The notes beneath the pieces were generated by a model. That model was given only the letters and a program-made list of their open reading frames with translations, did not search any database and was not told the DNA's origin. From Clostridiales bacterium (GTDB lineage Bacteria > Bacillota > Clostridia > Christensenellales > CAG-314): DNA of 64,000 nucleotides. Of this stretch, positions 6,876-59,970 are shown piece after piece. How positions within the stretch are numbered: position 1 is the stretch's first letter; every line of letters begins with the position of its first letter. The stretch covers positions 104,323 to 168,322 of the forward strand of contig JAFLVJ010000002.1 in assembly GCA_022508375.1 (NCBI GenBank), given 5' to 3'. The translations under genes and the position numbers were made by a program.

Positions 6876-6900
6876 TTTAAAAGTATAAATTATTTTTGAC

Positions 6901-7830: not shown

Positions 7831-7833
7831 AAG

Positions 7834-8601: not shown

Positions 8602-8670
8602 GGCTTTCTCCGTAGTAAATGTAATACGCAGTCATTATACCACAAAACGTAAACTATTTCAACAATTCAG

Positions 8671-29866: not shown

Positions 29867-31516
29867 ATGAAAAAGAGATATTTTGTTTTAACGTTAATTA
29901 TTGTAGCTATTTTTGCATTGTCGGCATTTGGTTTTGTCGGAATGTACACAGGTGACATGGCGTACGCTGAGTCGCAGACCGTGGATATTTACGCAATCAA
30001 CGACTTCCACGGTGCGGTGGACAAGATGCCGCAAATTGCCGGATATTTGGCTGCACGCAAAAGCGAAGGTGCGGTTATCGTCAACGCGGGGGATATGTTC
30101 CAAGGTTCGATGGAGTCTAACTCTAACTACGGCAGGTTGCTTTCGGAGTGTATGGATATTGCGGGATTCGACTCCTTTACCTACGGCAATCACGAGTTCG
30201 ACTGGGGATTGGACAACTTGCGAACGCTTGCGCAAAACAGTACAACGCCTTTCCTCGGTGCCAACATATACAACTGGAACGCTAACACACGCGAGTGGGG
30301 CGAATTTGCAAGCGATCTTGCCGAACCATATACTATTGTAGATAGTAACGGTATCAAGGTGGGTATCATCGGCATAATCGGCAAGGATCAAATTACGTCC
30401 ATTTCGTCACAGTTGGTGCAAACTATCGGCTTTAAAGACCCGAGCGAAGTGGTGCCGAGCTTATCCGATAAGCTGCGCAACGAAGAAAACTGCGATATAG
30501 TTATCGTCAGCGCTCACACAGGGCAGGACACATTTTTGGAAGATAGAAGCTGGGATATATCTCAATACGCCAATGCAGTACTTTGCGCCCACACCCACCA
30601 AAGGGAAATGGAATACAGAGGCGAAGTTCCCTTTATTCAGGCGGGATCGTACGGCAATTACATTTCGCACATACAGCTGTACATCAACATCAACAACGAG
30701 GTCAAGTGCGGATATCGCGAATATATTACCTACAACAGTATCGGCGATAACGAAATTGACCGCGACGTTTACAACACCGTAAAGACCAAGATTGACAACT
30801 CCAACGCCGGTATTGCCGACGAGGCAAATCAAGTGTTGGCAACGCTCTCGGGCGGATTGGAAAGTAAGCACGCAGTTCCCCGTTTGGTGTGTCACGCAAT
30901 AGCCGAATACGCCGAAAAGCAAGGACATCACATTGACCTTGTAATGGTGAACAACGCGCGTAACTCGCTATCCAAGGGTGAAGTTACCTACACTGAGCTG
31001 TACGAAGCAATACCGTTTGACAACGTCGTTTACGTGGCAAAGGTATCCGGTAAGGACATTATCAACGAGGCAAGATACGACAGCAACAGTATTTGGCGCG
31101 TAAGCGGTAACGCAATTGTAAACAATAGCGCCCAGTATTACACAATTGCGGTAATTGACTACCTGTTGTATCATCAAAACTCCAACCGCATTTACAACTA
31201 CTTCCCGTCGGCATTCAAGAGTGGATTTACTCCCGTTGCTCTTACCAAACAGGGTGTAGAAATGTACAATTACCGTCATATTACCAGAGATTTCCTATTG
31301 AGTAATCCCACTATCGATTCGTCGGTATATACCTCGGACAACATTCACACGGACGCAAGCAAGCTGCAAAGTAGCGTAGATTTGCCAATTTACGTCGAGC
31401 CCGTCTTGCCCGACTACGCAATTGCGTTGATAGTTGTCGGCGGTGTGATTGTGGTGGCGGTTGTTGTCGCGATAGTGATTATATTGCTTCGCAAACGCGC
31501 GAAAGCCAACAATTAA
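29867..31516 (+). CDS. Secreted 5'-nucleotidase / calcineurin-like metallophosphoesterase with a C-terminal TM anchor
   Basis: Signal/TM N-terminus. Metallophosphatase motifs 'INDFHG', 'NAGDMFQGS', 'GNHEFDWG', 'SAHTG' and 'CAHTHQ'. A 5'-nucleotidase C-terminal domain, then a hydrophobic tail 'ALIVVGGVIVVAVVVAIVIILL' followed by 'RKRAK'. Confidence 0.85.
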   Translation: MKKRYFVLTLIIVAIFALSAFGFVGMYTGDMAYAESQTVDIYAINDFHGAVDKMPQIAGYLAARKSEGAVIVNAGDMFQGSMESNSNYGRLLSECMDIAGFDSFTYGNHEFDWGLDNLRTLAQNSTTPFLGANIYNWNANTREWGEFASDLAEPYTIVDSNGIKVGIIGIIGKDQITSISSQLVQTIGFKDPSEVVPSLSDKLRNEENCDIVIVSAHTGQDTFLEDRSWDISQYANAVLCAHTHQREMEYRGEVPFIQAGSYGNYISHIQLYININNEVKCGYREYITYNSIGDNEIDRDVYNTVKTKIDNSNAGIADEANQVLATLSGGLESKHAVPRLVCHAIAEYAEKQGHHIDLVMVNNARNSLSKGEVTYTELYEAIPFDNVVYVAKVSGKDIINEARYDSNSIWRVSGNAIVNNSAQYYTIAVIDYLLYHQNSNRIYNYFPSAFKSGFTPVALTKQGVEMYNYRHITRDFLLSNPTIDSSVYTSDNIHTDASKLQSSVDLPIYVEPVLPDYAIALIVVGGVIVVAVVVAIVIILLRKRAKANN

Positions 31517-31649: not shown

Positions 31650-33332
31650 ATGAAGAAAAGGTTGATTTGTTGTTTGATAATCTTGGCGATGTGCGCGTCC
31701 ATATTTGCGGGATGCGCAGCGACATTCGACAACGATACGCTCGACGTAGTGATATCCAATATAAAAAAGGATATGTCGCTTGTGCAAATCATGTACGGTT
31801 CGTACGAACTGCCCAACATGGTGGAAAGCTACGACCTGAAGGGTAACAGCGCAACAATTTATATAGAGTGGAAAGTTAACGGCGATATTCTCGTTGTGGC
31901 GAAGAACAACGGCGATACGACCACAATCTACATTCCCACCGACAGATTGGAAGAACTGCACTATACCCTCACGGCAACGTTAATTAGCGCAATGGGCAAG
32001 CAATACCGTGATAGCAACGGAAACCCCTACATGGCATCCGTTGATTGTACCGCACCCATTCCCGCGACCGGCGGAACAGGAGGTAACGGCGGAACGGGTG
32101 ACAACGGTGGTAACACGGGAGGCAATACCGGTAATACAGGTGGCAATACAGGCGACAACACAGGAGGAAACACCGGAGGTAATACAGGCGGTGACAATAC
32201 CGGTGGTAATACCGGAGGCAACACCGGTGGAGATACGGGGAATTCCGGCAGTGGTGATAACACGGGAGGCAACACCGGCGGTAACACAGGTGGCAATACG
32301 GGTAGCGACACACCGTCAACATCCGCAAAGCTGGATTTGAACACCGGTACAACCGTACCCTCACCCTGGACGGCAGATCAGCTGGTACAATCAGGGAACG
32401 ATATAACCGTAACTAACAATAAGGATAACAGTTCGGTAGATTGCAATGCAAATTCGTACTCGAACTCCGTTCGTTGGTATGCAGGTAGCACGATAACGGT
32501 GAAATACACTTCGCCGATGACGCGCATTGTAATAACCCTCGACGACTATTCCAACGGAAAGTATTTGACAGGCTTTGACGGAATGTCCGTTTCGGGCGCG
32601 ACAATCACCCGTGACGGAAGCGTAGTAACGATTGTGCTTGCTACGCCTGCGGATACATTCAAATCGGGCGAATTTACAAGTCAATGCCGTGCAAAGTCAA
32701 TTGAGGTTTTCGCTGATAGTTCGACAAGTGGCGGTACAGGCGATAACACCGGTGGCAATACAGGTGACAACGCGGGCGGAAATACAGGTGGTGATAATAC
32801 CGGCGGAAACACAAGCGGTCAAGCCGGAACTTATTCGTTTAACTTTGCACCCAATTTCGGAACTTACTCAAATAGTTGGGACAATCAGTACACTACAAGA
32901 ACAATAACCGCTGCGGATTTAGGCGTGACGGACGTAAACGTTAATTTTGTACTGTCCAACGGCGCTAAACAGGATAACATGCCCACAATGCCTACTCTCG
33001 CTTGCAAAAACACCGAGCAGTATCTGACGGTAACGGCAGTGGGAAGGACAATAACGGCAGTAACCTTTAACCTTCAGGAGTGGATAACACAGGGCGGTGG
33101 CGCAGCAAAAGTATTTACTACGCTAACGATAGAGTACTCCACCGACGGCAACACCTGGAACCAAACTAACGTAGGTTTTACCAACTCAGCGGCAACGCAA
33201 ATTACCGATTACCAAACTCTCACTTATTCGGGGCTGCCCGCGGGAGTAACTTCCGTCAGACTTGTGATATGTTCCAACAAGACCGGCAATCAACAGATTG
33301 GTATATCCGCTTGTTCGTTGGTATTGGCGTAA
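31650..33332 (+). CDS. Hypothetical lipoprotein with two G/N/T-rich low-complexity linkers
   Basis: Lipobox 'IFAGC|AA'. GAGGAG RBS. Two GGNTG-type linkers separate three globular segments. Confidence 0.8.
   Translation: MKKRLICCLIILAMCASIFAGCAATFDNDTLDVVISNIKKDMSLVQIMYGSYELPNMVESYDLKGNSATIYIEWKVNGDILVVAKNNGDTTTIYIPTDRLEELHYTLTATLISAMGKQYRDSNGNPYMASVDCTAPIPATGGTGGNGGTGDNGGNTGGNTGNTGGNTGDNTGGNTGGNTGGDNTGGNTGGNTGGDTGNSGSGDNTGGNTGGNTGGNTGSDTPSTSAKLDLNTGTTVPSPWTADQLVQSGNDITVTNNKDNSSVDCNANSYSNSVRWYAGSTITVKYTSPMTRIVITLDDYSNGKYLTGFDGMSVSGATITRDGSVVTIVLATPADTFKSGEFTSQCRAKSIEVFADSSTSGGTGDNTGGNTGDNAGGNTGGDNTGGNTSGQAGTYSFNFAPNFGTYSNSWDNQYTTRTITAADLGVTDVNVNFVLSNGAKQDNMPTMPTLACKNTEQYLTVTAVGRTITAVTFNLQEWITQGGGAAKVFTTLTIEYSTDGNTWNQTNVGFTNSAATQITDYQTLTYSGLPAGVTSVRLVICSNKTGNQQIGISACSLVLA
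32067..32308 (+). repeat. Coding low-complexity tandem repeat (GGNTG/GDNTG units, about 80 aa)
   Basis: Iterated ggtggYaaYacMgg-type 15-nt units, encoding 'GGTGGNGGTGDNGGNTGGNTGNTGGNTGDNTGGNTGGNTGGDNTGGNTGGNTGGDTG...'. Confidence 0.9.
32730..32817 (+). repeat. Second, shorter copy of the GGNTG coding repeat
   Basis: Encodes 'GGTGDNTGGNTGDNAGGNTGGDNTGGNTSG'. Confidence 0.85.
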
Positions 33333-33417: not shown

Positions 33418-34143
33418 TTAACAAAGTTTTTTCTTCAATTTGTCAAATACGGCAACGCTGTCGCGGCGGGTGGACATGGGGGTTACGGAAATGTAGCCGT
33501 TCATTACCGCGTCGGTATCCAGTGTGTAGTCGTTATTCAATTGGTAAATAGAGTAGCCTTCCTGATGGTAGTGAACGTCGTCTATCTTGACAAATTGGTC
33601 GTTGAAGTACGCTCCGCCCTGCTTAGTCCACTTGATTCCCTTGGAGTTTAACGGAATATTTACGTTGTATATATCGTTGTGACTGAGCAAGTCGTGCTTT
33701 ACAAAGTAGTCGTATATTTCGTCCAAGCGACGTTCCGCCTCGGAAAAGCTTGACGGGTCGGTACTGAAGGCAATGCCCTTGTGTCCTCTTAACGACGCTT
33801 CGAACACACATCCCATAGTTCCGCTGTACAGTATGTCTTCGCCAATGTTAAAACCCTTGTTTACGCCTGATAGTATCAAGTCGTAGTCGTTGTTTTCCAA
33901 TCCGAGCAGTGCAAACCGAACGCTGTCAACGGGTGTGGAATCCACAACGTAGGCGGTAACGCCCTCTATATAGGGGACTTGGTGTACTTCGATATGGTCG
34001 TGGAAGTTTATTGCGTGACTTTTGGCGCTTTGTTGCATTTTCGGTGCGGAAACGGTAACTTCGCCCAGTTTTCGTGCCCAACTTGCAAGGATTTTGATAC
34101 CTTCTGCGTTGATTCCGTCGTCATTTGTTACAAGTATTTTCAT
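33418..34143 (-). CDS. surE: 5'/3'-nucleotidase SurE
   Basis: N-terminus 'MKILVTNDDGINAEGIKIL', 'SGVNKGFNIGEDILYSGTMG'. The start overlaps the upstream stop (ATGA). Confidence 0.9.
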   Translation of the reverse strand: MKILVTNDDGINAEGIKILASWARKLGEVTVSAPKMQQSAKSHAINFHDHIEVHQVPYIEGVTAYVVDSTPVDSVRFALLGLENNDYDLILSGVNKGFNIGEDILYSGTMGCVFEASLRGHKGIAFSTDPSSFSEAERRLDEIYDYFVKHDLLSHNDIYNVNIPLNSKGIKWTKQGGAYFNDQFVKIDDVHYHQEGYSIYQLNNDYTLDTDAVMNGYISVTPMSTRRDSVAVFDKLKKKLC

Positions 34144-35126
34144 AGCCAGCCCTCATGTGTTTGTTTGTAATCGGCAACCATAGCATCTGCATCGGCAAGC
34201 ATCTTGGCTATATCCGACTTTTTGTAAAGCGTGGCGCCACATGTGCATTGATGTCCGCCACCGTTGTATTTTTCCGCAAGCGTATTGATATACATAAATC
34301 TACTACGCAGTCTTACGCGAATGGTGCCGTCCGGCATGTCGATAAACGCCAACTGAACAATACAGCGCTTGATGTACTTGAGATAGGATATTGCCTCGCT
34401 TGCCTGTTCCGACGTAAGGTTGAACTTGGCTTGCATTTTCGCGTCAACGTGCAGATATACCACGCCGTGTTCGGTTATTTTCATGTGCTCAAGCACGTAC
34501 GCTTGAAACTTGAGTTGTGAGTATTCTTCCAAATACAGGTGAGCGTACAGAGTTTCGGTATCTACGCCAAGGTCAATGAGCATACCGCCTATACGCAACG
34601 TATCACCCGTTGTCGCCTCGTAGCGGAACCGTCCGCTGTCCGTAACCAAGCCTGTAAAGATGTAGGTTGCCGCCTCTTTGTCCAGTTTAAGTTCGCTCTT
34701 AAACGTTTCGTAAAAGTAAGCAATCATTTCGCAGGTGGATGAGCGCCAGTCCTCGACCCAAGCGATAGCGCCGTACGGACTGATGTTGATGTGGTGGTCA
34801 ATCTTGATGATTTCTTTTGCCAGTTCGTAGCGCTTGTTGGAAATTCGTTCGGGCGTTGCCGTATCGGTAACTATGAGCAACGCGTCGGCGTATTCGCTGT
34901 CGGGTAGCGGTTCGTCGTCCGGTCCGAGAAAGGAAAGATAGTCGGAGCTGTCTTCCGTTTGCACGTAAATTTTTTTGTCGGGAAAGCTAAGACGTAGCAT
35001 TGAGGCAAGTCCGCGCGATGAACCGATAGCGTCGCCGTCGGGACGAACGTGTCGCGTGATAATTATCTTGTCGTAGCTTTTTATTTTGTCAAGAATTTGC
35101 GTCATTACTTGCAGTTGTTGCGTCAT
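34140..35126 (-). CDS. DHH/DHHA1 phosphoesterase, NrnA-like (paralog 1)
   Basis: Motifs 'RHVRPDGDAIGS', 'VTDTA', 'IDHH' and DHHA1 'GGGH'. AAGGAGAG RBS lies inside the upstream gene. Confidence 0.85.
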   Translation of the reverse strand: MTQQLQVMTQILDKIKSYDKIIITRHVRPDGDAIGSSRGLASMLRLSFPDKKIYVQTEDSSDYLSFLGPDDEPLPDSEYADALLIVTDTATPERISNKRYELAKEIIKIDHHINISPYGAIAWVEDWRSSTCEMIAYFYETFKSELKLDKEAATYIFTGLVTDSGRFRYEATTGDTLRIGGMLIDLGVDTETLYAHLYLEEYSQLKFQAYVLEHMKITEHGVVYLHVDAKMQAKFNLTSEQASEAISYLKYIKRCIVQLAFIDMPDGTIRVRLRSRFMYINTLAEKYNGGGHQCTCGATLYKKSDIAKMLADADAMVADYKQTHEGWL

Positions 35127-35127
35127 A

Positions 35128-36087
35128 CTACTCTCCTTTAGACTGTCTATGTAGGGCCTTTAAGTCCTCTACCATGTTCATTGCCGTTGCAATGTCGGGT
35201 ATTGTTGCTCCGCTTGCTTTGGCGTGTCCGCCTCCGCCGTATTTTACCGCTATGGGGTTTATGTTGTATTTTTTCGAACGTAACTCACACAAAACGCCCT
35301 CGGCAGTTTCGGTAAAGTTGACCCAGCTGTCAATACCGCGAATGTCCGACATCGTGCCTACCATTCCGCGGGAGATTCCAAACGTATCGGCACCGCGTTC
35401 GGTAATTAACTTGTTAAGTTCGTCCTTGGTGGTGATTATGTAAGCAACACCGTCGCCTGCCGTCTGTATCTTGAGTGTGAATTCGGCGCGCAGTCGTACA
35501 TTAGATAGGTCGTCTGCATACAGCTCACTGTATATTTCGTTGGGGTCGAAGCTTTGCTCGGTAAGTATTGAAGCCAGTCGGAATGTGCGTGAATTCGCCG
35601 AGTCGTAGCGGAAACGGCCGCTATCTGTTACCATTCCCGTAAATAGTGACTTAGCCGCAAGTCTGTTAAAACGCAACTTGCAATCGACGGCAAACTGGGT
35701 GATCAGTCCGCAACAGCTTTCATAAGTGTTGTCGATTATATCCAACCCGCATATATCTTCGCAGTAAATGTGGTGGTCGAACCTAAGCGTAGCAGCTGCC
35801 GTGGTGTAACGCGTGTCGCTTATCATAAATTTAGCCGACGTATCCAAAACAATAGCAAGCGCTCCGTTATACGTATTATCGGGGATTTCGTCCGGCTCCC
35901 ATCCTTCAATGAAGGCGTAACGTTTTGTTCTGTCGCCTACCATATAGACAGTCTTATTAGGATAGTTTTCGCGGATAAGTTCGCGCAGTCCTATTTGACT
36001 GCCTAGCGCGTCCCCGTCGGGATTGCTGTGTCTGTGAATGATTATCACGTCGTATTTTTCAATTAGTTTCAATGCTTTTTTGAACAT
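35128..36087 (-). CDS. DHH/DHHA1 phosphoesterase, NrnA-like (paralog 2)
   Basis: Motifs 'HRHSNPDGDALGS', 'VLDTS', 'FDHH' and DHHA1 'GGGGHAKASG'. GAGGT RBS. Confidence 0.85.
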   Translation of the reverse strand: MFKKALKLIEKYDVIIIHRHSNPDGDALGSQIGLRELIRENYPNKTVYMVGDRTKRYAFIEGWEPDEIPDNTYNGALAIVLDTSAKFMISDTRYTTAAATLRFDHHIYCEDICGLDIIDNTYESCCGLITQFAVDCKLRFNRLAAKSLFTGMVTDSGRFRYDSANSRTFRLASILTEQSFDPNEIYSELYADDLSNVRLRAEFTLKIQTAGDGVAYIITTKDELNKLITERGADTFGISRGMVGTMSDIRGIDSWVNFTETAEGVLCELRSKKYNINPIAVKYGGGGHAKASGATIPDIATAMNMVEDLKALHRQSKGE

Positions 36088-36293: not shown

Positions 36294-36333
36294 AAAAAAC
36301 AGGAATACGCGATGCGTACTCCTGTTTCTTTTT
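36294..36333. terminator. Bidirectional terminator downstream of the giant surface-protein gene
   Basis: Stem aacaggaatacgc/gcgtactcctgtt (36298-36326), flanked by A-runs and T-runs. Confidence 0.75.
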
Positions 36334-36396
36334 GTTTTGTTTGACAACAAATACCGTTAGGGTCAATTTGTTGTGTTGATAAAAGCGTTTGATTGA

Positions 36397-39300
36397 TTAT
36401 TCGGTAACTTCCGTCTTTTCAAGGTCGCGAGTCTTGCCGCTACTGGATAATACCTTCAAGATATAAGTTTTCGTTTCGGCGTCTGCGTTTGCCTTTACTT
36501 TTACAGTCAGGGTACCGTCGGCATTGGCTGTGTAACCTTCAATGATGTAGGTAACGGAATTGTAAGTGAAGTTTTCAATTCCGATAATTTTGTCGTTCAA
36601 ATCGACTATAACGTAAGCCGCGCCTGCGCCGTTATCCAATCTTCCGTAAATAACGCTACCGATGTATTCAACAGTAACGGTTTCGGCTGTCTCGCCTTGT
36701 TGAGGAACGTACGTCACATAGTACAGATAGGGAGTGTACTTTGTTGAAACGTTGTACGGATCGCCCAGTTCAGCACGGAACTTGTATTGGCTAACCTTAG
36801 TGATATTGAAGATGGTTGCAGTTTCCCAACCGTCAGTGTCTTTCCACTCGATATTTTCAATCTCTACGTTGTCTTTGTTGTCAACCAGGAAGGTAACGCG
36901 CCATTCGTTATCCGATTCGAGGGTGGGCATTCTGCCAAGTTCGGATACTGTGCAGGTAGTGCTGGAAGTGATTGCAATTTGAATTACTATGTTGTTGGAG
37001 TCGGTGAAACGAATCGTATGTGACTTTGCATCGAATTGAGCGTCGAGCGTCTCGTCACCGTAGTTGAGACTAACTTCGTAACTGTAGTACAGACCGTTGT
37101 AATCGAATACGAGATTGATTACAACCGTCTTGCTGTCATCGGCTGTCAACTGAACGTCTCTACCCAAGGCAACGTACACTTCATTGTTAACAGTAAAGCC
37201 GTTAAGCGTACCGGATTCGCTACCTTCGGTGTTGTAAGCCGTACCTTCTTCATTGAGCAGATAAACGGTAACCTTGTCACCATCTACCTTGTACAGACCG
37301 AGTGTTTTGCCCGGTTCAAGCTCCCACCAGCCTTCAACCAAGTTTTTAACAAGACCGCCGGATAGTTCTACAAATCCGCCACTTGTAAAGTTGTAGTAGC
37401 GTTCGTTTTCCTCACCGCTCTTGAAACCGATGTTGTCTTTAACGGAAGCAAGTCCTTCGTCGGTGTACAGCGCATTAACCGCGTTGATATCTGTAACCAC
37501 AATACGTACACTGATGGTGTTGCCGGGGTTGAGTGATGCGCCTTCGCTGCAGGTAAATACGTCTTTACCCCAGGAAATTGCGGTAGCGTTTGCTACTCCC
37601 GTAAGGTCAATGACCATTACGCCAACCTGACGAACGTGTGAGAACGCTCTGTCGCCAATCGACTCTATTGCACCGAGCGTCATACTTGTTACGCGACTAC
37701 CGAAGAACGCTTCTTCGCCGATTGTAACAACGCCGGGCAGGTTAACTGTTGTAAGGTTGTATATTTGGGCAAAAGCTCTTGCGCCAACGTAAGTGATCTT
37801 GTCGGAAATAACTTCAGTCAGATCTGAGTAATAGAAAGCTCCGTCGTCAATACGTGTAACGTTGTTGAAGTTTACCTTTGTCACGCGTGAAGCGGCGAAT
37901 GCGTTCTTGGCGATGCGAGTAACGCTTGCGGGAATGGTGATTTCCGTATCGTCACTGACGTAAGCGTACAGCACTCCGTCGCGTATGATAAAGCCGTTGT
38001 CCGCTTGCGCAACGCGGAAAGTGTTGTCATCAAGTAATTCAAAGTACAGCGTATCCGTTTGATTGTCGGGATACAGTGCTACCAGCCAATCGGTGATATA
38101 ACCGTATGAACCGACAGTAAGTGCGCCGTACTTATCTACGTATATTGCGCTCATGTAGCCGTCCAGTAGCAGGTAAGCCCATTCCTGTGAGATGAACTCG
38201 CCTTCGTTTTCGGCAACGTAAACTGCGTATTCGTAAATATATCCGTCCGTTCCACCCATGTTTGCAGTCATATAAATTGCAAACAGGAAGACTGTTTCGT
38301 TGTCATCACCGATGTAACGGTAAGCGTAGTCGTCAATTTCCGTTGCCATTTGGTAGGTACCGTTGCCACAAACAGCTCCGCTTGCGTCATACAGCGTTGC
38401 GTTTCCGTGACCGTCAAGGTATATCTTGGCGTTTGTAGCTCTGCCATCTTCAACCAGACGGAACGCGCCCGATTGATAAGTACGCATTTGCGCTACAGTC
38501 TTGTTGCTTGCTGTAACAAGGTCGAATATCAGCTGTTGATAACTGCCGTCGGAAAGTATTGTAAATACCAATACCTTGCGCATATCGTCAGTGGTGGCGT
38601 GACTAAACAGTCGTGTATCGTACTCGCTGTCGTCGTACTCACCTATTTCCAATATGCCTTGGTAAGTTATGCCGTCTGCGTCCGTGTAGGATGCAAGGGA
38701 GATATATCCCAATCCTTCGTAGTAGCCGTAGCCGTCACCGCTAAGATGTCCGCCACCTTCCACGTCGTAATCGGCCTCCTGAGCCACGTCTTTGACAAAG
38801 TAAATTTCGTCAGTGGCAAACAGAATAATATTGAAGCTGAGCGTATCGCTGTAACCGTACTGTACAGTGACAGCGTATTCGTCGTATTTTTTGTTTTCCA
38901 CCTTTACGTATTCACCGACGTACACTTCGGTGCTGTAACCGGTTGTCTCAACGTAATATATTGTTCCGTCGCCGTCCAATACAATGTAGTAATAGTAGCG
39001 TGCGGTGCCATATATAAATTGATATTGCGAAGCAAGGTCGTCATAGTAACCAGCTTCGGGTCCGACAAACTTGAAGGTGTTTTCTTCTTCGTCCACCTTG
39101 ATAAGCCAGTAACTGCCGTCTTTTACCAAAGCGTACAGGACGATATTTTCCTCGTAATACTCGACATAACTGTAGTAAACCAAATATTGGTAATTTGTTA
39201 TTTCGCCGTTGACGGTTGTAAGCGTAGCGTTGCCAAATCCGTCAAATACGAGCTTGCTGCCCTCCTCGTTTTCCAGTTCCATTGTGTTCGCCAGTATGGT

Positions 39301-42057
39301 AAACACGCCGTCTTCAACTGAATAATAAAAGTTGAACAAGTATTTGGGGATATTTACAGACTTGTCGTAGCTGTTGGCGTTGGAATATTCGAAGCTGAAA
39401 ATACCGTCATCTTCATCGTACACGTTACCTTCAAGCGCGTAGTAGTAACTGCCGTTGGTATAGAAACCGATTGCGGCGCTCCACATAAAGCCGTAATATT
39501 CATCGTAAATGACCATGCGCACGGGAGAATCCGTTTGTGTATCGGTCAAATCTATCACTTCGGCCTCAATTACGGACATATTACCGTAATCGTTAAAGTA
39601 TGCAAATACGTATTGTGTGCCGTCAAGATCGAAGATGTAAAGCGCGTACAGAGTGTAGCCGTAGCCTTGTTCTTTGACGTATTGTACCGTGTGAGCGACG
39701 CCGTCTTTCGGGGTGTAGGTTGCAACGCCCTCCTCGTCGATAACCAGTTTTCCGTTTGCATCATCAAAGAAAGTGATTTCAACCTGTTTTTCCGGTTCAA
39801 GCTCGGCGTAGCCGTTGGAGTTGATTATAAAGCGTGTTCCGTATTCGGATAACTCGTAAACGCCGTTAGTTGCTTTAAGGGGCAAACCTTCATTGTAGTC
39901 ATATACAATCCACAGCGGATATTCGCCGTAATCGCCTATCTGAATAAGCAGAACAGCACAATTTTGTATTTTGGCTGCTTCACTGTATCCTGCGAATACG
40001 TAAATGAGCGCGTTTAACGTTTCGCCGTCAATGTCGAAACCGTTTTCGAATTCGTAAATGCCGAACAGTTCCGCATCAATCCAGTCGTAGTCGTAGTCCT
40101 CGTAGTTATCCAACGAGCGGGGACGAATCTTATATTCCTTCGATTCACCTACAACGCGGAAGCTTACCCAGTAGTCGTACAGCATGGACACGCTTTCGCT
40201 ATCCATGTCATAAAGGAAAAATACTTGCGAATGTGATTCGTATGTGATTGTTTTACCGCCATACGTGCCGCCACCGAAACCGTCAAGGTACAGTATTTCG
40301 CCATCGGGGGTAACATATTCGCCACGGTTGGGGTGATATACGCCCGTAAATCCGTCGCCACGAAGCATCGAACCCTTAGTCTGCTGACCGTTTACTACCT
40401 TCGAACCTTCGGCAAGACGGAAGTCAAACATGTGAGCGTAGGAATCCTCTACAACCGAGTACAGCGAATAGGTAACAAAGTTGTCGCCTTCGTCAATCGA
40501 GTAGTAGATGAGGGGTAGCTCGGTGTAGTAAGCGTCGTAATATTCGTCGTAGTAGGGATTGGTCTTGCTGTAAATTTCCCAACCTTCGCCAAATCCGTTA
40601 AGGTAGTACAGTACAACGCCATCATTGCTTTCATTTGTAGCGGGAATGTAGTAGCCTGCCTCTTCACTCTGAATACGGAATTGAACCACGCCGCGGTAAG
40701 AACCGTCATTTACCAGTTCGAGACGGTACACGAAGTTGACTGTGTCCGATTGGAACAGGTAAAAACCTTCATCGTTGACGTCGTATGTGCCGATTGTTTT
40801 AGCGTTGTTTTTGTCAATATAGACAGCAACACCGCCTGCTTTCATTTCCAACGTTGCGCTACTTCCGTCGTAACTGGTGTACACCTTTTCGACGGAATCT
40901 CTGTAATAGTAGAAGGCATTGCCCACAACCTTACCGCTAAGCATTTCGGTGCCGTCCTCTTCGAACGAGAATGCATTTGTGGTCTTGTCGAAGGTACCGT
41001 ATTTTTCCTCGATACCGATTCGGTCCAGTATAGCCAGTCCATCTTCGAGGTGAGGAATAAACAGATAGTCGGTGCCACCGAACAGGTCGTAGTAAGCTAC
41101 GTCCCATTGCGCGTACATGTAGTAATCCATGTCAACAAGCAGCTTATCACCCTCGAAGTAATAAACGCCGTTTGCGTCCGATTCCTCAACCGTTTGCGTC
41201 CAAGCTGCAAAACGCAGTCCGTCGCCACTAAATATTGCGCCTACGATTTCGACGGTGTTACCGTACAATACTTCCTCGTAGTCGAAATCTTGTGAGTTAG
41301 CGGGGTTGAAGTAGTAAACCGAATATTTGTCGCGAGCAAGGTAGGCGGTAAAAGTTTCGCCTTTACCGAGACTGTTGCTGCTCAGTTTATTGTTTTGCGT
41401 ACTGTCAACGTGGAAGTGCGCCTTGTTGGATGTGTAGGTAAATTGTTCGCCGTAAAACGCCTTTTCCGTCACCGTTTGCGCAGTAGCGGGGTAGTTTCCG
41501 TCAACGTCCTGCTCGTAAAGGTTGAGCGTGTAGTTAACGTAGTACTTCGCCTTGAGCGTGAGATTTCTGTTCGGCATCGTATCCGATTCGGATACGGCAT
41601 TGTCACCGTTATACCAACCGGCAAATTCCAAACCGGATTGAACTGTGGGAACAATGTCTTTGAGGAAGTTGCTCAAGTTCGTTCCCGGAGTAACAGCGTA
41701 ACTGCTATTGGCAAGAGTACCGCCCGTTGATGCGTCCAATGTGAGCGTCACTTGGGAGTTTGGAGTCGTCCACTTAGCGTAGTAAGTTACGTTCTTTTCG
41801 GGCATTTTGGAGGGAATTTCCTGCCTTACTCCACTGAAATCCTTTTCTAAATACCAACCTGCAAAGGTGTAGCCTTCACGCGTGGGGTCGGCTGGTGGAG
41901 TGATATCCTCTCCGGCTTTTGCTTTTATTGCCTTAATTTCCGTACCGCCGTTAGTCACAAACTTCATCGTGACCTTGCCCGTGCATGCCGAAAGACTCAA
42001 TGCAAGCACGAAAATAACGGCAAGAAGCAGCAATAAACTTTTTTGCGGTTTTTTCAT
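36397..42057 (-). CDS. Giant (1886 aa) surface lipoprotein: N-terminal Listeria-Bacteroides-type repeats, a long Tyr/Asp/Gly-rich repeated region of unknown family, and a C-terminal BspA-type leucine-rich repeat region
   Basis: Lipobox 'LSLSAC|TG'. AAGGAG RBS. 'REGYTFAGWYLEKDFSG...YYAKW' and 'GLEFAGWYNGDN...LKAKY' are flg_new/List-Bact repeats. 'ITIPASVTRIAKNAFAASRVTKVNFNNVTRIDDGAFYYSDLTEVISDKITYVGARAFAQ...LPGVVTIGEEAFFGSRVTSMTLGAIESIGDRAFS' is an LRR_5/BspA-like region. Confidence 0.85.
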   Translation of the reverse strand: MKKPQKSLLLLLAVIFVLALSLSACTGKVTMKFVTNGGTEIKAIKAKAGEDITPPADPTREGYTFAGWYLEKDFSGVRQEIPSKMPEKNVTYYAKWTTPNSQVTLTLDASTGGTLANSSYAVTPGTNLSNFLKDIVPTVQSGLEFAGWYNGDNAVSESDTMPNRNLTLKAKYYVNYTLNLYEQDVDGNYPATAQTVTEKAFYGEQFTYTSNKAHFHVDSTQNNKLSSNSLGKGETFTAYLARDKYSVYYFNPANSQDFDYEEVLYGNTVEIVGAIFSGDGLRFAAWTQTVEESDANGVYYFEGDKLLVDMDYYMYAQWDVAYYDLFGGTDYLFIPHLEDGLAILDRIGIEEKYGTFDKTTNAFSFEEDGTEMLSGKVVGNAFYYYRDSVEKVYTSYDGSSATLEMKAGGVAVYIDKNNAKTIGTYDVNDEGFYLFQSDTVNFVYRLELVNDGSYRGVVQFRIQSEEAGYYIPATNESNDGVVLYYLNGFGEGWEIYSKTNPYYDEYYDAYYTELPLIYYSIDEGDNFVTYSLYSVVEDSYAHMFDFRLAEGSKVVNGQQTKGSMLRGDGFTGVYHPNRGEYVTPDGEILYLDGFGGGTYGGKTITYESHSQVFFLYDMDSESVSMLYDYWVSFRVVGESKEYKIRPRSLDNYEDYDYDWIDAELFGIYEFENGFDIDGETLNALIYVFAGYSEAAKIQNCAVLLIQIGDYGEYPLWIVYDYNEGLPLKATNGVYELSEYGTRFIINSNGYAELEPEKQVEITFFDDANGKLVIDEEGVATYTPKDGVAHTVQYVKEQGYGYTLYALYIFDLDGTQYVFAYFNDYGNMSVIEAEVIDLTDTQTDSPVRMVIYDEYYGFMWSAAIGFYTNGSYYYALEGNVYDEDDGIFSFEYSNANSYDKSVNIPKYLFNFYYSVEDGVFTILANTMELENEEGSKLVFDGFGNATLTTVNGEITNYQYLVYYSYVEYYEENIVLYALVKDGSYWLIKVDEEENTFKFVGPEAGYYDDLASQYQFIYGTARYYYYIVLDGDGTIYYVETTGYSTEVYVGEYVKVENKKYDEYAVTVQYGYSDTLSFNIILFATDEIYFVKDVAQEADYDVEGGGHLSGDGYGYYEGLGYISLASYTDADGITYQGILEIGEYDDSEYDTRLFSHATTDDMRKVLVFTILSDGSYQQLIFDLVTASNKTVAQMRTYQSGAFRLVEDGRATNAKIYLDGHGNATLYDASGAVCGNGTYQMATEIDDYAYRYIGDDNETVFLFAIYMTANMGGTDGYIYEYAVYVAENEGEFISQEWAYLLLDGYMSAIYVDKYGALTVGSYGYITDWLVALYPDNQTDTLYFELLDDNTFRVAQADNGFIIRDGVLYAYVSDDTEITIPASVTRIAKNAFAASRVTKVNFNNVTRIDDGAFYYSDLTEVISDKITYVGARAFAQIYNLTTVNLPGVVTIGEEAFFGSRVTSMTLGAIESIGDRAFSHVRQVGVMVIDLTGVANATAISWGKDVFTCSEGASLNPGNTISVRIVVTDINAVNALYTDEGLASVKDNIGFKSGEENERYYNFTSGGFVELSGGLVKNLVEGWWELEPGKTLGLYKVDGDKVTVYLLNEEGTAYNTEGSESGTLNGFTVNNEVYVALGRDVQLTADDSKTVVINLVFDYNGLYYSYEVSLNYGDETLDAQFDAKSHTIRFTDSNNIVIQIAITSSTTCTVSELGRMPTLESDNEWRVTFLVDNKDNVEIENIEWKDTDGWETATIFNITKVSQYKFRAELGDPYNVSTKYTPYLYYVTYVPQQGETAETVTVEYIGSVIYGRLDNGAGAAYVIVDLNDKIIGIENFTYNSVTYIIEGYTANADGTLTVKVKANADAETKTYILKVLSSSGKTRDLEKTEVTE

Positions 42058-42202
42058 GGTATATTCTCCTTTTCAAATTGATAATTGTACAAGTATATCA
42101 TTACGATGTGTTTTTTGTCAACGTGCGCACGCAATATAATATATATTAACTAAAATTTAATAACGTATATATAGCATTGATATATAATTTCGCGGGTATG
42201 TA

Positions 42203-43796: not shown

Positions 43797-46700
43797 ATGA
43801 GAAAAACCAAGCTTTTATCATTGCTCGCTTTGCTGGTAATGGTATGCGTTGTTGTTACTGTCGCATTTGCAGCATGTAAAAACAACGGTTCCGGCGAAAT
43901 CAAACTTTCGCAAACGGAATTGAACCTTGTAGAAGGCGGTAACGCTCAACTTACCGCAACGGTAACAGGCTCGGACGAGGCAATCAGTTGGTCGGTTGAA
44001 CCTGCAGATGTAGTAAGTCTTACTCGCGTAACGGACAAGATTTACACAGTAAAGGCGTTAAAGGTTGGTACTGCAACTATAACGGTTAAATCAGGCGACC
44101 TCAGCGCAACCTGCGCCGTAACGGTTAGCGAAAAGGAAGTAGTAACCATCACATTGAACGGTCAGGCTGTAACAACTGCCAGCGTGGATATGGGCAATAC
44201 AATTACTCTTGCCGCATCATCTAACAAGGGCAACGCTATCACCGCTTGGACCAGCTCCAACGAAAATATCGCAACGGTTGCAAACGGCGTCGTATCAGGT
44301 TTGAAGCCCGGTAAGGTTACAATCAGCGCGCAAGTAACTGCTTCTATTAAGGCTGACATCGAAGTTACAGTTAACTCCGTAGGCGGATATGAATACTACG
44401 AAATCAGCGTTGTAAAACCTCCCGAAGCATTATCAAATACTCCCGGGGTTTGGGAATGCTGGACTGAGTGGGGACAATTTGCCGCGCTTAACTACGACAA
44501 CGGTACCGTAAACATTGACTTTACCGAAAACGGTGGCGCGTGGTACAACATTCAGTTGTTCCATATCGACACAGCAATAGATGCAGGTAAATTTTACAAA
44601 CTTACTTTCGATATCGACAGTTCCGAAGCAGGTCACATTACAGTCAACGGTAACGTTGTAGAGTTGCTTAAGGGCAAACATTCCTACGAAGTTTATTTCA
44701 CCAACGGCAACGGATTTAGTATTCAATTCGGTGTTGACGGCGTAGGTATTGATATCTTGGAAGCAAAAGTTGCAATTTCCAACATTCAATACACGGAAGA
44801 TACCAGCCGCGTAACGCTCAATGCTCCTTCCTTCACCTACAACAGCGATACTGGTGTTATTACAATTAACGATAGTAACTCGGCAGGTGTTAAGAATTAC
44901 GTTCTCAATCTGTACCAAAACGGTAAATACGTTACAGGTGTAACTATCGCTAAGAGCGGTGACGTAGTTGACTGGTCATTGGTTATCAGTGGAACTTATC
45001 AAGCTAAACTCAAGGCAATAGCTACAAACTCTCACTACATCGACTCTGAGGAATCTGCTGCTGTTGAAATCGTAGTTGTCAATGAGGGCGGTATTCACTA
45101 CACATTCCACAACGAACCGCCGATTGGTTCTGAAGGAAACACTGAAATGGACGCCGGTGGCGCAACCGCTAAGCAAACTCCCGGTATCTGGACTTACTGG
45201 TCTTCTTGGTGGGTAACCATTGACGGCGAATTCAAGAACGACAAACTTACCGTAACCTTCAGTAACAACACAGGTAACTGGACCGATACGCAATTGTTCT
45301 ACAAGCATCCCGGTCTTGAAAGTGGTAAGATTTACAAAATGCAACTGGAAATCGACTCCAACGCAGGCGGTAGAGTAACGCTCAACGGTGCCGAATTTAC
45401 AATAAAAGAAGGTAAACACGTTTACGATATCGTTTTCACGGAAAATGGTGGAACGTCCATTGCATTGGTATTCGGTCTTAACGGACAGGACACCGCTCAG
45501 GAAATACCTGCAGCTACGATGGTATTTGAAATCAAGGGCGTAACGGAAGTTGTAGCAAGCAAGCTTGCGGCTCCTTCCTTCACTTTGGAAGCGGATAACG
45601 TTATCAAGATTACCGACACCAACACGACAGGCGTAGGAAGATACGAGCTTGGTTTCTTCCAAGGCGGCGAATTGAAAACTACCGTTGTGGTAGTAAACAA
45701 CGAGTCGGTTGACCTCAGCAAGGTTGCTGCAGGCACCTACCAAGTTAAACTTAGAGCGATTGCTGCAAATGCGGCATATATTGACTCCGATTGGTCAACT
45801 GTTGCAGATCAAATCACTTCCGCAACGGAAAACACTCCCATAGCAAACGGTGAAGAAACCGACGCCTACACCCACCCCGGTAATTGGTACGAATGGCACG
45901 ACCAAAACTGGAACGGTTCTACGGTAAACGTATCCAAGGCGTATATCGATAAAGACGGCGCAATTAACTACAGTTTCAATATTGTTGCAGGCGCCAACAC
46001 CTACGATCAAGCGGCTCACCTGTATTATCATTACTCCGACAAGGTTGTAGGCTCAGCTTACACTTTGACGTTGAAAGTTAAATCCAGCGTTGCATGCACC
46101 GTTGATTTCTGCGGTGTGAAGAAGGCGTTGACGGTTGGCGATAACGATATTTCCGTTACCTTCAATCAACCCGCTCAAGGTAGTTCCTGGAACGGCAAGC
46201 CCATTGGCGCAACTATCCGCATTTACTTCAACAACAGCGGAGAATTCGTTCTTTCCAACATCAACGTTTCAAGCGCTACGCAAACGAAGCTTAACGCGCC
46301 TTCCTTTACAGTTGACAGCAGTTCGAAAGTTATCACCATTACGGACAGTAACGCAAGCGGAAGCGTAGGCAGATACGAACTCGGTTTCTTCCAAGGCGAA
46401 ACGCTCAAGACTACCGTAACTGTTACAAACGGACAGGCAGTAGCTCTCGGTACAGTTCCCTCCGGCACTTACACCGTTAAACTTAAGGCTATTGCCGCAA
46501 ATGCGGAATACATCGATTCCGATTGGTCCACAACTACGGCAACTATTGTTTCCGCAACGGAAAAAGTTGAAATAGGTTACCACGAAGAGCAAGACGCATT
46601 TACAGGTTGGGCTTACTGGGATTCCAAGGTATCGGCAGACTGGAACCAATGGACCAAAGCAACCTGTTCCAAGTGCGAGATGGACGTCAACGGCAAGGTT

Positions 46701-46982
46701 ACAATGTCCTACACCGTTGAGGGTACGGGCGCAGCTTGGGCAATGCAGATGTTCTACAAATCCAACGTAAGCGCTAACGCGTACAACTCCTCTTTGAAGA
46801 TAACGGCAAGCGTTAATACCACAATTAAAGTATGCGGTCAATCCGTTGAGTTGAAAGCAAATGAAGCTAAGGTAGTAACGGTTACAGGTTACAAGTCCGA
46901 AAAAGGCAGTGCTATTGACATTCAATTCGGTTTTACAGGCGGTACTTTTACAATTGAAGACGTAAACGTGACTGCAGCGTAA
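43797..46982 (+). CDS. 1061-aa surface lipoprotein: three Big_2 domains plus four CBM-like modules alternating with three roughly 88-aa repeats (putative glycan-binding protein)
   Basis: Lipobox 'VAFAAC|KN'. GGAGG RBS. Big_2-like 'LTATVTGSDEAISWSVEPADVVSL'. The internal repeat structure is read directly from the translation. Confidence 0.85.
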   Translation: MRKTKLLSLLALLVMVCVVVTVAFAACKNNGSGEIKLSQTELNLVEGGNAQLTATVTGSDEAISWSVEPADVVSLTRVTDKIYTVKALKVGTATITVKSGDLSATCAVTVSEKEVVTITLNGQAVTTASVDMGNTITLAASSNKGNAITAWTSSNENIATVANGVVSGLKPGKVTISAQVTASIKADIEVTVNSVGGYEYYEISVVKPPEALSNTPGVWECWTEWGQFAALNYDNGTVNIDFTENGGAWYNIQLFHIDTAIDAGKFYKLTFDIDSSEAGHITVNGNVVELLKGKHSYEVYFTNGNGFSIQFGVDGVGIDILEAKVAISNIQYTEDTSRVTLNAPSFTYNSDTGVITINDSNSAGVKNYVLNLYQNGKYVTGVTIAKSGDVVDWSLVISGTYQAKLKAIATNSHYIDSEESAAVEIVVVNEGGIHYTFHNEPPIGSEGNTEMDAGGATAKQTPGIWTYWSSWWVTIDGEFKNDKLTVTFSNNTGNWTDTQLFYKHPGLESGKIYKMQLEIDSNAGGRVTLNGAEFTIKEGKHVYDIVFTENGGTSIALVFGLNGQDTAQEIPAATMVFEIKGVTEVVASKLAAPSFTLEADNVIKITDTNTTGVGRYELGFFQGGELKTTVVVVNNESVDLSKVAAGTYQVKLRAIAANAAYIDSDWSTVADQITSATENTPIANGEETDAYTHPGNWYEWHDQNWNGSTVNVSKAYIDKDGAINYSFNIVAGANTYDQAAHLYYHYSDKVVGSAYTLTLKVKSSVACTVDFCGVKKALTVGDNDISVTFNQPAQGSSWNGKPIGATIRIYFNNSGEFVLSNINVSSATQTKLNAPSFTVDSSSKVITITDSNASGSVGRYELGFFQGETLKTTVTVTNGQAVALGTVPSGTYTVKLKAIAANAEYIDSDWSTTTATIVSATEKVEIGYHEEQDAFTGWAYWDSKVSADWNQWTKATCSKCEMDVNGKVTMSYTVEGTGAAWAMQMFYKSNVSANAYNSSLKITASVNTTIKVCGQSVELKANEAKVVTVTGYKSEKGSAIDIQFGFTGGTFTIEDVNVTAA
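44817..45080 (+). repeat. Intragenic repeat module 1 ('LNAPSFTYNSDTGVITINDSN...YQAKLKAIATNSHYIDSE')
   Basis: Homologous to the modules at 45564-45828 and 46289-46560. Confidence 0.8.
45564..45828 (+). repeat. Intragenic repeat module 2 ('LAAPSFTLEADNVIKITDTN...YQVKLRAIAANAAYIDSDWS')
   Basis: Roughly 80% nucleotide identity by eye to module 3 over the segment 'attgcYgcaaatgcggMatayatYgaYtccgattggtc'. Confidence 0.8.
46289..46560 (+). repeat. Intragenic repeat module 3 ('LNAPSFTVDSSSKVITITDSN...YTVKLKAIAANAEYIDSDWS')
   Basis: See modules 1 and 2. Confidence 0.8.
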
Positions 46983-57886: not shown

Positions 57887-58010
57887 TCTGTAATATTTTA
57901 TATCTATTATTTTTCAGAAATATATTGACATATTCTTTGTTATGTATTATACTACAACGATTTAGTATAACAAATGCTAAATGGAGGCATGGGCGAAAAG
58001 GAGTTTTTAA

Positions 58011-58637
58011 ATGAGTGATTATCGTTATGTAACTAAAGACCAGTATTCTGAGGCTAAGCAAGATTTAATCGAACTAATCAATCTCGTACAAGATGAGGTT
58101 CGCGATTACTTTACTTTTCGCTATGACTTTATTGGTAGCGTATCAAGGAACATGGTCACCATGGACTATGATTCCAATGTAGGTTATGATTTCGATGTCA
58201 ATCTTCGTGTAAATGATGATGAGGAAAATTATTCTGCTGAAGAGATAAAACAGATTTTAAAAAAAGGATTTGACAAATTCGCCCATCTATTTAAATATGA
58301 TTATAGTGAGGATAGTACACGTGTTTTAACCATCAAAGTAAAAGACAGACAACATTCGAGAATATTGCATAGCGCCGACTTTGCTGTTGTTCATGATGGT
58401 AGTAAAGGACAGCAGTATATACATTATAATAAAAATCAACAAACATATGAGTGGCAATATCAGCCGAAATCGTATTACAAATTAGATGAGCGTATTGCTA
58501 TAATTAAAGAAAATAATCTTTGGCAAAAAGTGCGTGATTTGTATTTAAATAAGAAGAATAATAATACTGATGGGAAAAAGTCTCGTTCTCTATTTGCCGA
58601 GACAATAAATGAAATATATATGCAATATTTTGAGTGA
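58011..58637 (+). CDS. Pol-beta superfamily nucleotidyltransferase, family unassigned (orphan)
   Basis: NTase signature 'IGSVSRNMVTMDYDSNVGYDFDVNL' (GS ... DxD) and a later acidic strand 'HSADFAVV'. AAGGAG RBS. The gene is visibly more AT-rich than its neighbours. Confidence 0.75.
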   Translation: MSDYRYVTKDQYSEAKQDLIELINLVQDEVRDYFTFRYDFIGSVSRNMVTMDYDSNVGYDFDVNLRVNDDEENYSAEEIKQILKKGFDKFAHLFKYDYSEDSTRVLTIKVKDRQHSRILHSADFAVVHDGSKGQQYIHYNKNQQTYEWQYQPKSYYKLDERIAIIKENNLWQKVRDLYLNKKNNNTDGKKSRSLFAETINEIYMQYFE

Positions 58638-58763
58638 TAATAAAACTGCCAATATATGAACACTCTGAAAAAATATTGTGGTGTTTTCGCTATAATTATA
58701 TATTATTAAAGCGATAATACAATAATGGGATAATTTGTAAAATACGCGTAATTTATCATTAGT

Positions 58764-58808
58764 AAAAACAACGATGCGGATGTTACTCTGCATCGTTGTT
58801 TTTTTTGT
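58764..58808. terminator. Bidirectional terminator between the NTase gene and the AraC-family gene
   Basis: Stem aacaacgatgc(58767-58777)/gcatcgttgtt(58790-58800), flanked by an A-run and a T-run. Confidence 0.8.
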
Positions 58809-58825
58809 TGGTGAGTTATAAGCGG

Positions 58826-59722
58826 CTATTTGCCCAGTGAAAACCTAAATTGACGCGGGGTCATGCCGTATTGCTTCTTGAATTGGCGGTTGAAGTAGGA
58901 CACGTTGTTGTATCCCACTTGATAGGCAATGGTTGCAACGTCGTCCTGCGTGTCGCGCAATTGACGTCCCGCAACGGTCAGGCGGTAATTGTTGACGTAA
59001 TCTACGACGCTAACGCCTGTCAGCTGCTTAAACAGCTTCATTGTGTAAAATTCGCTGTAGCCGCAGTGTTTGGATAATTTTTCTATTGTTATTTCATTCA
59101 TATATTCCGCACGGATATATTCCAACGCTTTGCGCACTGTATATAAACGTCTATCCTCGGCAAGATTTTGCTTGACGTTCATCAGGCGATTATTGTAAAT
59201 GTGGTAAAACATCCAGTACAGGTTGGCTTTTATGTCCAGCTCGGCGCCCTCCTTGGTGCTGTCGCTCATAAGTATGGATGTCATGCTTTGATCGAACGGA
59301 TGATACCAACTGTCAGTAGGTCTCACAATGCACGGCACGGAGTGCTTTTCGTTCAACAGCGGAGCAAAGTATTTTAGCGTGCATACGTCCGCTCCTCCCG
59401 TCTCCAACAGTCGCAAATTAAACACAATGACGTCTGCAATCATTTCGTTGTTGCCCAGACGGTTGATTGCGTGCATAACAAACGGTCGCAGTATAATAAT
59501 ATCTCCTGCCTCAGCCGTGTACTTTACGCCGTCAACGGAAACTTCGCCAATACCGCTTTGCACCTTGATGATTTCCATTTCCTCATGCCAGTGGATGGGT
59601 TGAAATGGCAACTGCTCGCTTACTTTTGTGTGATACTGCGCAAATGGCAGTAGCGGAGTTCCGTGAGTTACTTTTTCCTTATATTCGTTATAGTTTTTTT
59701 CGTTAATCGAGTGATAATCCAT
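58826..59722 (-). CDS. AraC/XylS family transcriptional regulator (cupin sensor plus HTH_18)
   Basis: The C-terminal double HTH ('LSKHCGYSEFYTMKLFKQLTGVSVVDYVNNYRL' and 'IAYQVGYNNVSYFNRQFKKQYGMTPRQFR') follows an N-terminal cupin ('HWHEEMEIIKVQSG'). The start is placed at Met84 of the long ORF (ATG 59722) because the upstream 83 codons are AT-rich junk. No clear SD. Confidence 0.85.
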   Translation of the reverse strand: MDYHSINEKNYNEYKEKVTHGTPLLPFAQYHTKVSEQLPFQPIHWHEEMEIIKVQSGIGEVSVDGVKYTAEAGDIIILRPFVMHAINRLGNNEMIADVIVFNLRLLETGGADVCTLKYFAPLLNEKHSVPCIVRPTDSWYHPFDQSMTSILMSDSTKEGAELDIKANLYWMFYHIYNNRLMNVKQNLAEDRRLYTVRKALEYIRAEYMNEITIEKLSKHCGYSEFYTMKLFKQLTGVSVVDYVNNYRLTVAGRQLRDTQDDVATIAYQVGYNNVSYFNRQFKKQYGMTPRQFRFSLGK

Positions 59723-59970
59723 AGTATTTACAGTGTTGTTTACAATACCGAACAAGTTTTCTTGTATGGAATTATTTATTTGCTGAATTTCGAATATTTT
59801 GTTACTTTCCTGTTCATTATATAATAGCAATTGAAAAAAGTAAACAAAATAACAGTATTGTGTTAGTTTTTTACAAGATATTGCAATCAATTTTTTATAA
59901 AAAACAATATAATGATGGCGTAAACAGCAATTTAGTTTGCGATTTGACAATAAGTAAGGAGGTAAACGCA

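Follow-up and report, generated by a model that had tools for sequence, protein, structure and literature searches.

We analysed the largest gene in a 64,000-nucleotide stretch of a Clostridiales bacterium contig (JAFLVJ010000002.1, positions 104,323 to 168,322; the window), which encodes an 1886-residue protein, and found that its core is a genuine, though highly diverged, tandem array of some dozen modules of ~88 residues, nine of which are demonstrably homologous. The protein consists, from its N-terminus, of a predicted lipid anchor, InlB-type B-repeats (Flg_new), the all-β core, a BspA-type leucine-rich repeat (LRR) region and a tail of ~400 residues. Proteins with this core make up a coherent family, rare and found in uncultured Clostridia of the gut. 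Giant repeat-containing surface lipoproteins are a familiar kind of protein; neither the repeat module nor the family is described in the libraries that we searched.

The repeat array of the core

An initial annotation of the gene had described one short motif recurring at least six times in the core at intervals of 100-200 residues. All six motif strings that it quoted are found in the protein, at residues 485, 590, 937, 1026, 1213 and 1297, and so are five quoted 'FxF' strings (residues 363, 432, 668, 887 and 995), which the alignments identify as conserved strands within the preceding unit. The regular expression h[LF][DN]G matches the core 6 times against 0.7 expected in shuffles (P = 2e-4), and its extension by x[GM] likewise has 6 matches where 0.08 are expected (0 of 20,000 shuffles). 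This expression was picked post hoc, after the data had been seen, and an independent test of the repeat was therefore required. Self-BLASTP of the single protein gave no off-diagonal match at E ≤ 10, which means that divergence has put the repeat beyond the reach of pairwise sequence comparison, and profiles were used instead.

The family alignment was compared with itself by hhalign, with reversed and column-shuffled alignments as controls. With 8 relatives, the off-diagonal matches reached P = 3e-11 and 1e-10, while the controls gave P = 0.08-0.9. With 70 full-length members, the off-diagonal matches reached P = 2e-21, 4e-13, 3e-12, 1e-10 and 4e-9 at offsets of ~1-2, 4, 6, 8 and 9 units, against 0.044 for the reversed control, so that the recurrence of the motif is significant. 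The residues that align with D592 or D1215 lie at positions 406, 487, 592, 774, 939, 1028, 1108, 1215 and 1299, with less certain equivalents at 335 and 688, and the gap near residue 860 in this ladder implies one further segment. The spacing is thus 71-107 residues with a mean of ~88, shorter than the intervals first proposed. A super-repeat of 3 x 4 units (~355 residues), suggested by the 8-sequence alignment, is not clearly favoured in the deeper alignment, where offsets of 1-2, 4, 6 and 8 units all score.

Next, the core was divided into 12 segments (U1-U12), whose family profiles were compared all against all. U2, U3, U4, U6, U8, U9, U10, U11 and U12 are all related to one another (probabilities 70-98%, P values down to 1e-12); U2 is closest to U11 and U8. 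P < 1e-3 was obtained for 34 of the 66 segment pairs and for 0 of 66 reversed controls, none of which fell below 0.006. The six copies of the initial annotation are therefore there, but the number is understated, since nine homologous units occur among the 12 segments. The family consensus L-x-L-D-G-x-G-x-A-T-Y is kept at eight anchors (residues 487, 592, 774, 939, 1028, 1108, 1215 and 1299) and weakly at a ninth. At the eight anchors the Asp is conserved in 54-95% and the next Gly in 72-100% of sequences, the Gly being replaced at 774. No DNA-level repeats were found in the array, which is therefore ancient and not an assembly artefact.

Domain architecture and protein family

The N-terminal sequence MKKPQKSLLLLLAVIFVLALSLSAC closes with a lipobox whose Cys25 is the predicted lipidation site. 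The regular expression used as the lipobox test ([LVI][ASTVI][GAS]C near the N-terminus) matches 66 of the 70 full-length family members (median position of the Cys, 27), and the Cys is invariant among the 8 closest relatives. By this expression and the invariant Cys the protein is classed as a predicted bacterial lipoprotein, a substrate of signal peptidase II, which upholds the earlier description of a lipoprotein and fits display outside the membrane. The following region scores 73.1 bits with Flg_new (PF09479; cut-off 27) in two stretches within residues 30-179 in Pfam and 59.2 bits with List_Bact_rpt (TIGR02543; cut-off 20.95) in NCBIfam, and the precomputed annotation adds PF18998. LRR_5 (PF13306) scores 64.8 bits against a cut-off of 27.7. 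Beyond Flg_new and LRR_5, nothing in the whole protein falls below E = 0.1 in Pfam.

The core extends over ~1030 residues rather than the roughly 1200 first estimated. As previously described, it is rich in Tyr (12.5%), Asp (8.8%), Gly (9.6%) and Glu (8.1%); its aromatic content is 18.7%, its isoelectric point 4.05 and its net charge -118. The LRR region had been taken as C-terminal, but ~400 unannotated residues (1480-1886) come after it. Within the family set, this C-terminal part is common only to P0004, P0010, P0011, P0012, P0015 and P0016 (E = 1e-80 to 2e-20).

The family was delimited by an exhaustive hidden Markov model (HMM) search with the core profile against 1.84 billion cluster representatives (50% identity), which matched 248 clusters at E ≤ 1e-3, 81 of them also at E ≤ 1e-30. 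The matches are almost all proteins of 1300-2100 residues with the core at about residues 250-1350, and the window protein itself scores 1355.8 bits with the core profile (A2, 1080 positions). Among the matches listed, 70 span 90% or more of the core profile and have their parts in the order lipobox, Flg_new, core; 50 of these have an LRR region, while 13 stop just past the core. The composition of the core is similar throughout these 70 members (Tyr 9.3%, Asp plus Glu 17%, Lys plus Arg 6.5%).

A word-indexed profile search returned only 11 proteins and was less informative than the exhaustive one. Each 90% cluster is known from one or two contigs. Species-representative genomes, scanned with one pattern, yielded 13 loci, 12 in rabbit-gut 'Lapin' metagenome-assembled genomes (MAGs) labelled as uncultured Clostridia and one in a mouse-gut Christensenellaceae MAG. 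One rabbit-gut MAG contig (locus L018) carries two family members in tandem (18-3344 and 5251-8745), and therefore the family can be multi-copy in a genome. Many weaker matches are confined to the beginning of the core profile (its first ~120-330 positions) and are often split into 3-7 separate stretches. The pattern FGG.D..F ... L.R.G..EK.G.YD..T..F.F ... FYYY lies within these positions, and profile positions 1-180 correspond to residues 318-~500. The most conserved signature of the core seems to be this N-terminal part, which may occur with otherwise different cores.

The initial annotation did not recognise the core as a named domain family, and neither did our searches, which placed it in no described repeat family. 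No match to the core was obtained in Pfam, NCBIfam, PHROGs or PDB sequences with the whole protein, single units, five diverse homologues or profiles. Specifically, Pfam gave nothing for the core region of the five diverse relatives, nothing significant for the 12 units of the window protein at E ≤ 10, and nothing significant for 62 units from 18 proteins, in which MORN_2 was the sole repeated family (2 of 62 at E ~0.009). The core profile found no PDB sequence at E ≤ 10, PHROGs contained nothing of note for the protein, and literature searches on InlB B-repeat and BspA proteins turned up nothing on the core family. Resemblances to lipocalin-like, CROP/cell-wall-binding and Asp-box proteins are unsupported by any Pfam match.

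Fold and role of the core

The AlphaFold2 model of the core reached a predicted local distance difference test score (pLDDT) of 70 with an 8-sequence alignment and 88.4 with a 35-sequence alignment (predicted template modelling score, pTM, 0.53). The latter model comprises ~90 β-strands and four very short helices, with short loops throughout, so that the β-rich repeat proposed at the outset is borne out by a confident all-β model. As seen in the model, the D-G-x-G residues form the turn between strands one and two of the units, for example E272-274, turn, E279-282 and E618-621, turn, E626-630 (core numbering, protein residue minus 317), and the G-x-Y after the motif is the start of the third strand. 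Since D-G-x-G sits in the turn of the first hairpin, the motif is, as modelled, a structural hairpin signature that would recur for structural reasons and not as a ligand site. A mean-field direct coupling analysis of 594 unit sequences (meander versus Greek-key) gave output dominated by gap and indel artefacts.

In our judgement the protein is probably, though by no means certainly, a non-catalytic, adhesin-like, lipid-anchored surface scaffold that is not part of the β-glucan genes next to it. That the protein is exposed at the surface, serves as a scaffold or adhesin or has a ligand is what we infer here and not what we observe. Proteins of the cell surface and of adhesion typically contain Flg_new and BspA LRR domains, and neither Pfam nor NCBIfam detects an enzymatic domain in any part of the protein. 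The N-terminal lipid anchor would hold the protein on the outer face of the cytoplasmic membrane. Each module would comprise ~88 residues in 6-8 antiparallel strands with short turns and open with a β-hairpin carrying L-x-L-D-G-x-G-x-A-T, while U1, U5 and U7, which are interspersed among the other units and match them in size, may be degenerate copies or inserts. The array would form a continuous β scaffold without flexible linkers, and Flg_new and the core may carry the LRR and the C-terminal part outward, through the wall. The core itself may provide a large aromatic, acidic binding surface, because about a fifth of the relatives end right after it.

Other readings of the core were weighed against the same data. 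Tandem β-propellers, or an Rhs/YD-type shell able to encapsulate a toxin, are suggested by Foldseek searches of both models against the PDB, where DDB1 (three propellers; E = 5e-7 and 1.4e-6, probability 0.92-0.96), teneurin, the Rhs effector Tse15, VgrG-Rhs and SGS1 are the best matches and EMC1 and many WD40/Kelch propellers are also listed; the Tyr-, Asp- and Gly-rich composition and the super-period of ~350 residues hinted by the 8-sequence analysis are consistent with them. However, all these matches have template modelling (TM) scores ≤ 0.19 and root-mean-square deviations (rmsd) of 18-50 Å. This holds even for single propellers of 280-390 residues (such as Ski8, KLHL12, Hsv2, PON1 and BamB; target-normalised TM 0.12-0.19, rmsd 18-29 Å), and the Rhs/YD-shell entries 8uy4, 8qja, 4igl, 8fjp, 8r54 and 9g2h reach only 0.04-0.10. 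Against the viral models of BFVD the best TM is 0.21, for a MORN-repeat protein. With TM ≤ 0.21 throughout, neither a propeller nor an Rhs shell is supported. In addition, the period of ~88 residues differs from the ~21 of YD repeats and the ~45 of propeller blades, RHS_repeat (PF05593), WD40, Kelch, PD40, NHL and similar models have no Pfam match at E ≤ 1, and the protein is without a C-terminal toxin or aspartyl-protease plug domain. We therefore regard this reading, and with it the β-propeller first thought possible, as largely refuted and highly improbable. The suggested β-solenoid type meets weaker evidence than the propeller: no match is described so among the best 50 listed in any of the three Foldseek lists. 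That the modules are extremely diverged immunoglobulin (Ig)-like or β-sandwich repeats, making the core a rod of known fold class that sequence models miss, we consider unlikely. A tandem unit of ~88 residues and ~7 strands is the commonest solution in bacterial adhesins, and such a unit, in tandem in a surface protein, is what is found here; moreover, the best PDB sequence matches of the unit profile are antibody VH/VHH domains over almost the whole unit (E = 0.016-0.05), and the BFVD matches include FN3 and tail-fibre proteins. These E-values are not significant, however, and the antibody matches all represent a single sequence family in redundant copies. Not one of 62 units or 6 full proteins matches a Big_*, FN3, cadherin or other Ig-type model of Pfam, the top PDB Foldseek matches are meander-type folds (propellers and Rhs shells) and not Ig arrays, and the units have no linkers between them.

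With regard to function, it is also conceivable, though quite unlikely, that the protein is the surface glycan binder of the adjacent β-glucan locus, its Tyr-rich modules capturing β-glucan for the GH16 and GH3 enzymes and a major facilitator superfamily (MFS) transporter. The gene lies divergently next to genes for GH16, a 1061-residue lipoprotein, two GH3 enzymes and MFS_2, and the aromatic content of the core would suit such a role. The same GH16/GH3 and DHH/SurE neighbourhood surrounds the gene of a 57%-identical relative (P0002), which is without the LRR and the tail. On the other hand, the gene lies on the opposite strand, with a promoter-like site and a terminator of its own, and the locus possesses its own co-oriented candidate binding lipoprotein (43797-46982). 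No carbohydrate-binding module (CBM) family model matches the protein, the sole hit, of one unit to CBM9_1, being non-significant at E = 0.075. Distant members lie in unrelated neighbourhoods, and P0006 and its clade are flanked by thrS, an Ig-like gene and a redoxin gene. No neighbour family is common to the 15 loci beyond the synteny of close relatives, and since no gene neighbour is conserved, the link to the β-glucan locus is one of local synteny only.

The favoured reading, a surface scaffold built on a tandem array, has several points against it. The profile comparison found no demonstrable homology of U1, U5 and U7 to the remaining units. The unit HMM at fixed length recovers only 3-5 units per protein, so that the repeat is visible mainly by profile-profile comparison; when iterated with free model length, the unit HMM drifted. 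In our analysis, the assignment of function draws on domain context, as no informative homologue was found, and surface exposure presupposes a single-membrane (monoderm) envelope.

It is possible, although we hold it doubtful, that the ~88-residue module and the linker-free joining of twelve such modules represent a new all-β fold or superstructure, a continuous β-meander fibre that has no solved analogue and in which the core is the binding organ. It would define a new class of giant lipid-anchored surface fibres specific to uncultured gut Christensenellales-like Clostridia. If so, the module would be a new building block among bacterial surface fibres and would warrant a domain family for ~250 clusters that are now labelled by their small Flg_new and LRR parts. 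In Clostridia of herbivore and rodent guts, which are poorly known, the genes for this family are among the largest, and the core profile allows the family to be detected and annotated. Knowledge of the ligand would tell how these uncultured organisms attach to the host, food particles or other microbes.

Genomic setting and comparison with known systems

The gene is an open reading frame (ORF) with an ATG start and the longest in the window; as the runner-up encodes only 1128 residues, the earlier statement on its size is correct. The product is identical to MCH5156622.1 in GenBank ('MAG: InlB B-repeat-containing protein [Clostridiales bacterium]'), which is known from one contig only, of 250 kb. 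The gene had also been credited with its own ribosome-binding site and terminator and with transcription divergent from the β-glucan locus, and all three were found (Table 1), with the GH16, GH3 and MFS genes on the opposite strand and the terminator hairpin equalled in stability by 0 of 200 shuffles.

Table 1 Gene signals, protein regions and repeat units of the 1886-residue lipoprotein, in window positions
Feature	Position	Strand	Basis
Whole gene, 1886 residues, MCH5156622.1	36397..42057	-	ORF listing and GenBank match
Sigma-70-like promoter, TTGACA, 18 nt, TG-TATACT; 11/12 matches	42092..42121	-	Consensus match only
Ribosome-binding site AGGAG, 8 nt 5' of ATG	42066..42070	-	Sequence reading
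Signal peptide and lipobox L-S-A-C, residues 1-25	41983..42057	-	Regular expression; Cys25 predicted lipidated
Flg_new / InlB B-repeat region, residues 28-317	41107..41976	-	PF09479, TIGR02543, PF18998
Repeat core, residues 318-1350; all-β, acidic, Tyr-rich; no family match	38008..41106	-	Library searches, hhalign, AlphaFold2
U1, residues 327-397, diverged	40867..41079	-	Profile comparison: homology not demonstrable
U2, residues 398-478, homologous, weak motif (TLEMKAGGVAVY)	40624..40866	-	P = 1e-12 vs U11
U3, residues 479-583, homologous, motif YLNGFG	40309..40623	-	Profile comparison
U4, residues 584-679, homologous, motif YLDGFGGGTY, most conserved in family	40021..40308	-	Profile comparison
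U5, residues 680-765, diverged	39763..40020	-	Profile comparison
U6, residues 766-851, homologous, motif LVIDEEGVATY, not in the initial annotation	39505..39762	-	Profile comparison
U7, residues 852-930, diverged	39268..39504	-	Profile comparison
U8, residues 931-1019, homologous, motif VFDGFGNATL	39001..39267	-	Profile comparison
U9, residues 1020-1099, homologous, motif VLDGDGTIYY	38761..39000	-	Profile comparison
U10, residues 1100-1206, homologous, motif LSGDGYG, not in the initial annotation	38440..38760	-	Profile comparison
U11, residues 1207-1290, homologous, motif YLDGHGNATLY	38188..38439	-	Profile comparison
U12, residues 1291-1350 (unit HMM: to ~1366), homologous, motif LLDGYMSAIY	38008..38187	-	Profile comparison
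BspA-type LRR region, residues 1351-1479; Pfam match residues 1371-1475	37621..38007	-	PF13306 LRR_5
C-terminal 407 residues, 1480-1886, no family match	36400..37620	-	Pfam, NCBIfam
Weaker hairpin	36344-36374	-	Sequence folding
Intrinsic terminator, 17-bp stem then U-tract	36294..36330	-	Folding: dG -32.8 kcal/mol, z -6.6

Several neighbouring genes are of note as well. The 1061-residue lipoprotein of the β-glucan locus (+ strand; lipobox AFAAC), located between GH16 and GH3, has no Pfam match at E ≤ 1e-5. It starts with a Big_2-like N-terminus and contains the block APSFT..ITITDSN..GV.RYELGFFQG..T.V.V..G....GTY.VKL.AIAANA.YIDSDWS 3-4 times, alternating with Trp-rich modules of ~150 residues; it is syntenic in locus L001 (1066 residues). 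We consider it a better candidate for the surface glycan binder of the locus than the 1886-residue protein. A further predicted lipoprotein of 560 residues (31650-33332, +; ..FAGC) has no Pfam match and carries two long Gly/Asn/Thr low-complexity linkers (GGNTGGNTG...); L001 holds a 516-residue ORF at the equivalent position.

Directly 3' of the 1886-residue gene and on the same strand lie two tandem DHH/DHHA1 phosphoesterase paralogues followed by SurE (34140-36087, -), near a Metallophos/5'-nucleotidase gene (29867-31516). Together these look like a nucleotide-phosphatase cluster, which is conserved in L001. Additionally, the G+C content is 0.33-0.37 at 4001-8000 and 58001-60000 against ~0.46 elsewhere in the window, and these segments may be foreign or intergenic-rich DNA.

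Among known systems, DDB1, WD40 and Kelch propellers and teneurin, Tse15 and TcB/TcC are likewise long all-β chains of antiparallel hairpins and meanders, and the YD repeats resemble the core in their Tyr/Asp/Gly-rich composition. The core differs from these propellers and Rhs shells in that it does not superpose on them, has another repeat period and no corresponding Pfam match, and is without a toxin cargo domain. MORN and MORN_2 repeats resemble the core in their Gly- and aromatic-rich β-hairpins with G-x-G-type turns. Their period, however, is ~23 residues against 88 in the core, the full protein has no MORN match at E ≤ 1, and the two unit matches to MORN_2 (PF07661) fall below significance once the 62 queries are counted.

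The Listeria internalin-type proteins, with InlB B-repeats and BspA LRRs, are like the window protein in having both Flg_new and LRR_5 above the Pfam thresholds, and it is from the B-repeats that the NCBI name of the window protein is taken. The window protein is nevertheless not an internalin, because its scores with the class 1 internalin models of NCBIfam (NF033188 and NF033189; 39.4 and 38.5 bits) are far below the cut-offs of 1050 and 1600. Flg_new and the LRR account for less than a quarter of the protein, the core and the tail are without an internalin counterpart, and a lipobox takes the place of the LPXTG or GW modules that anchor internalins. What both have in common is the logic of a large, modular, non-enzymatic cell-surface protein.

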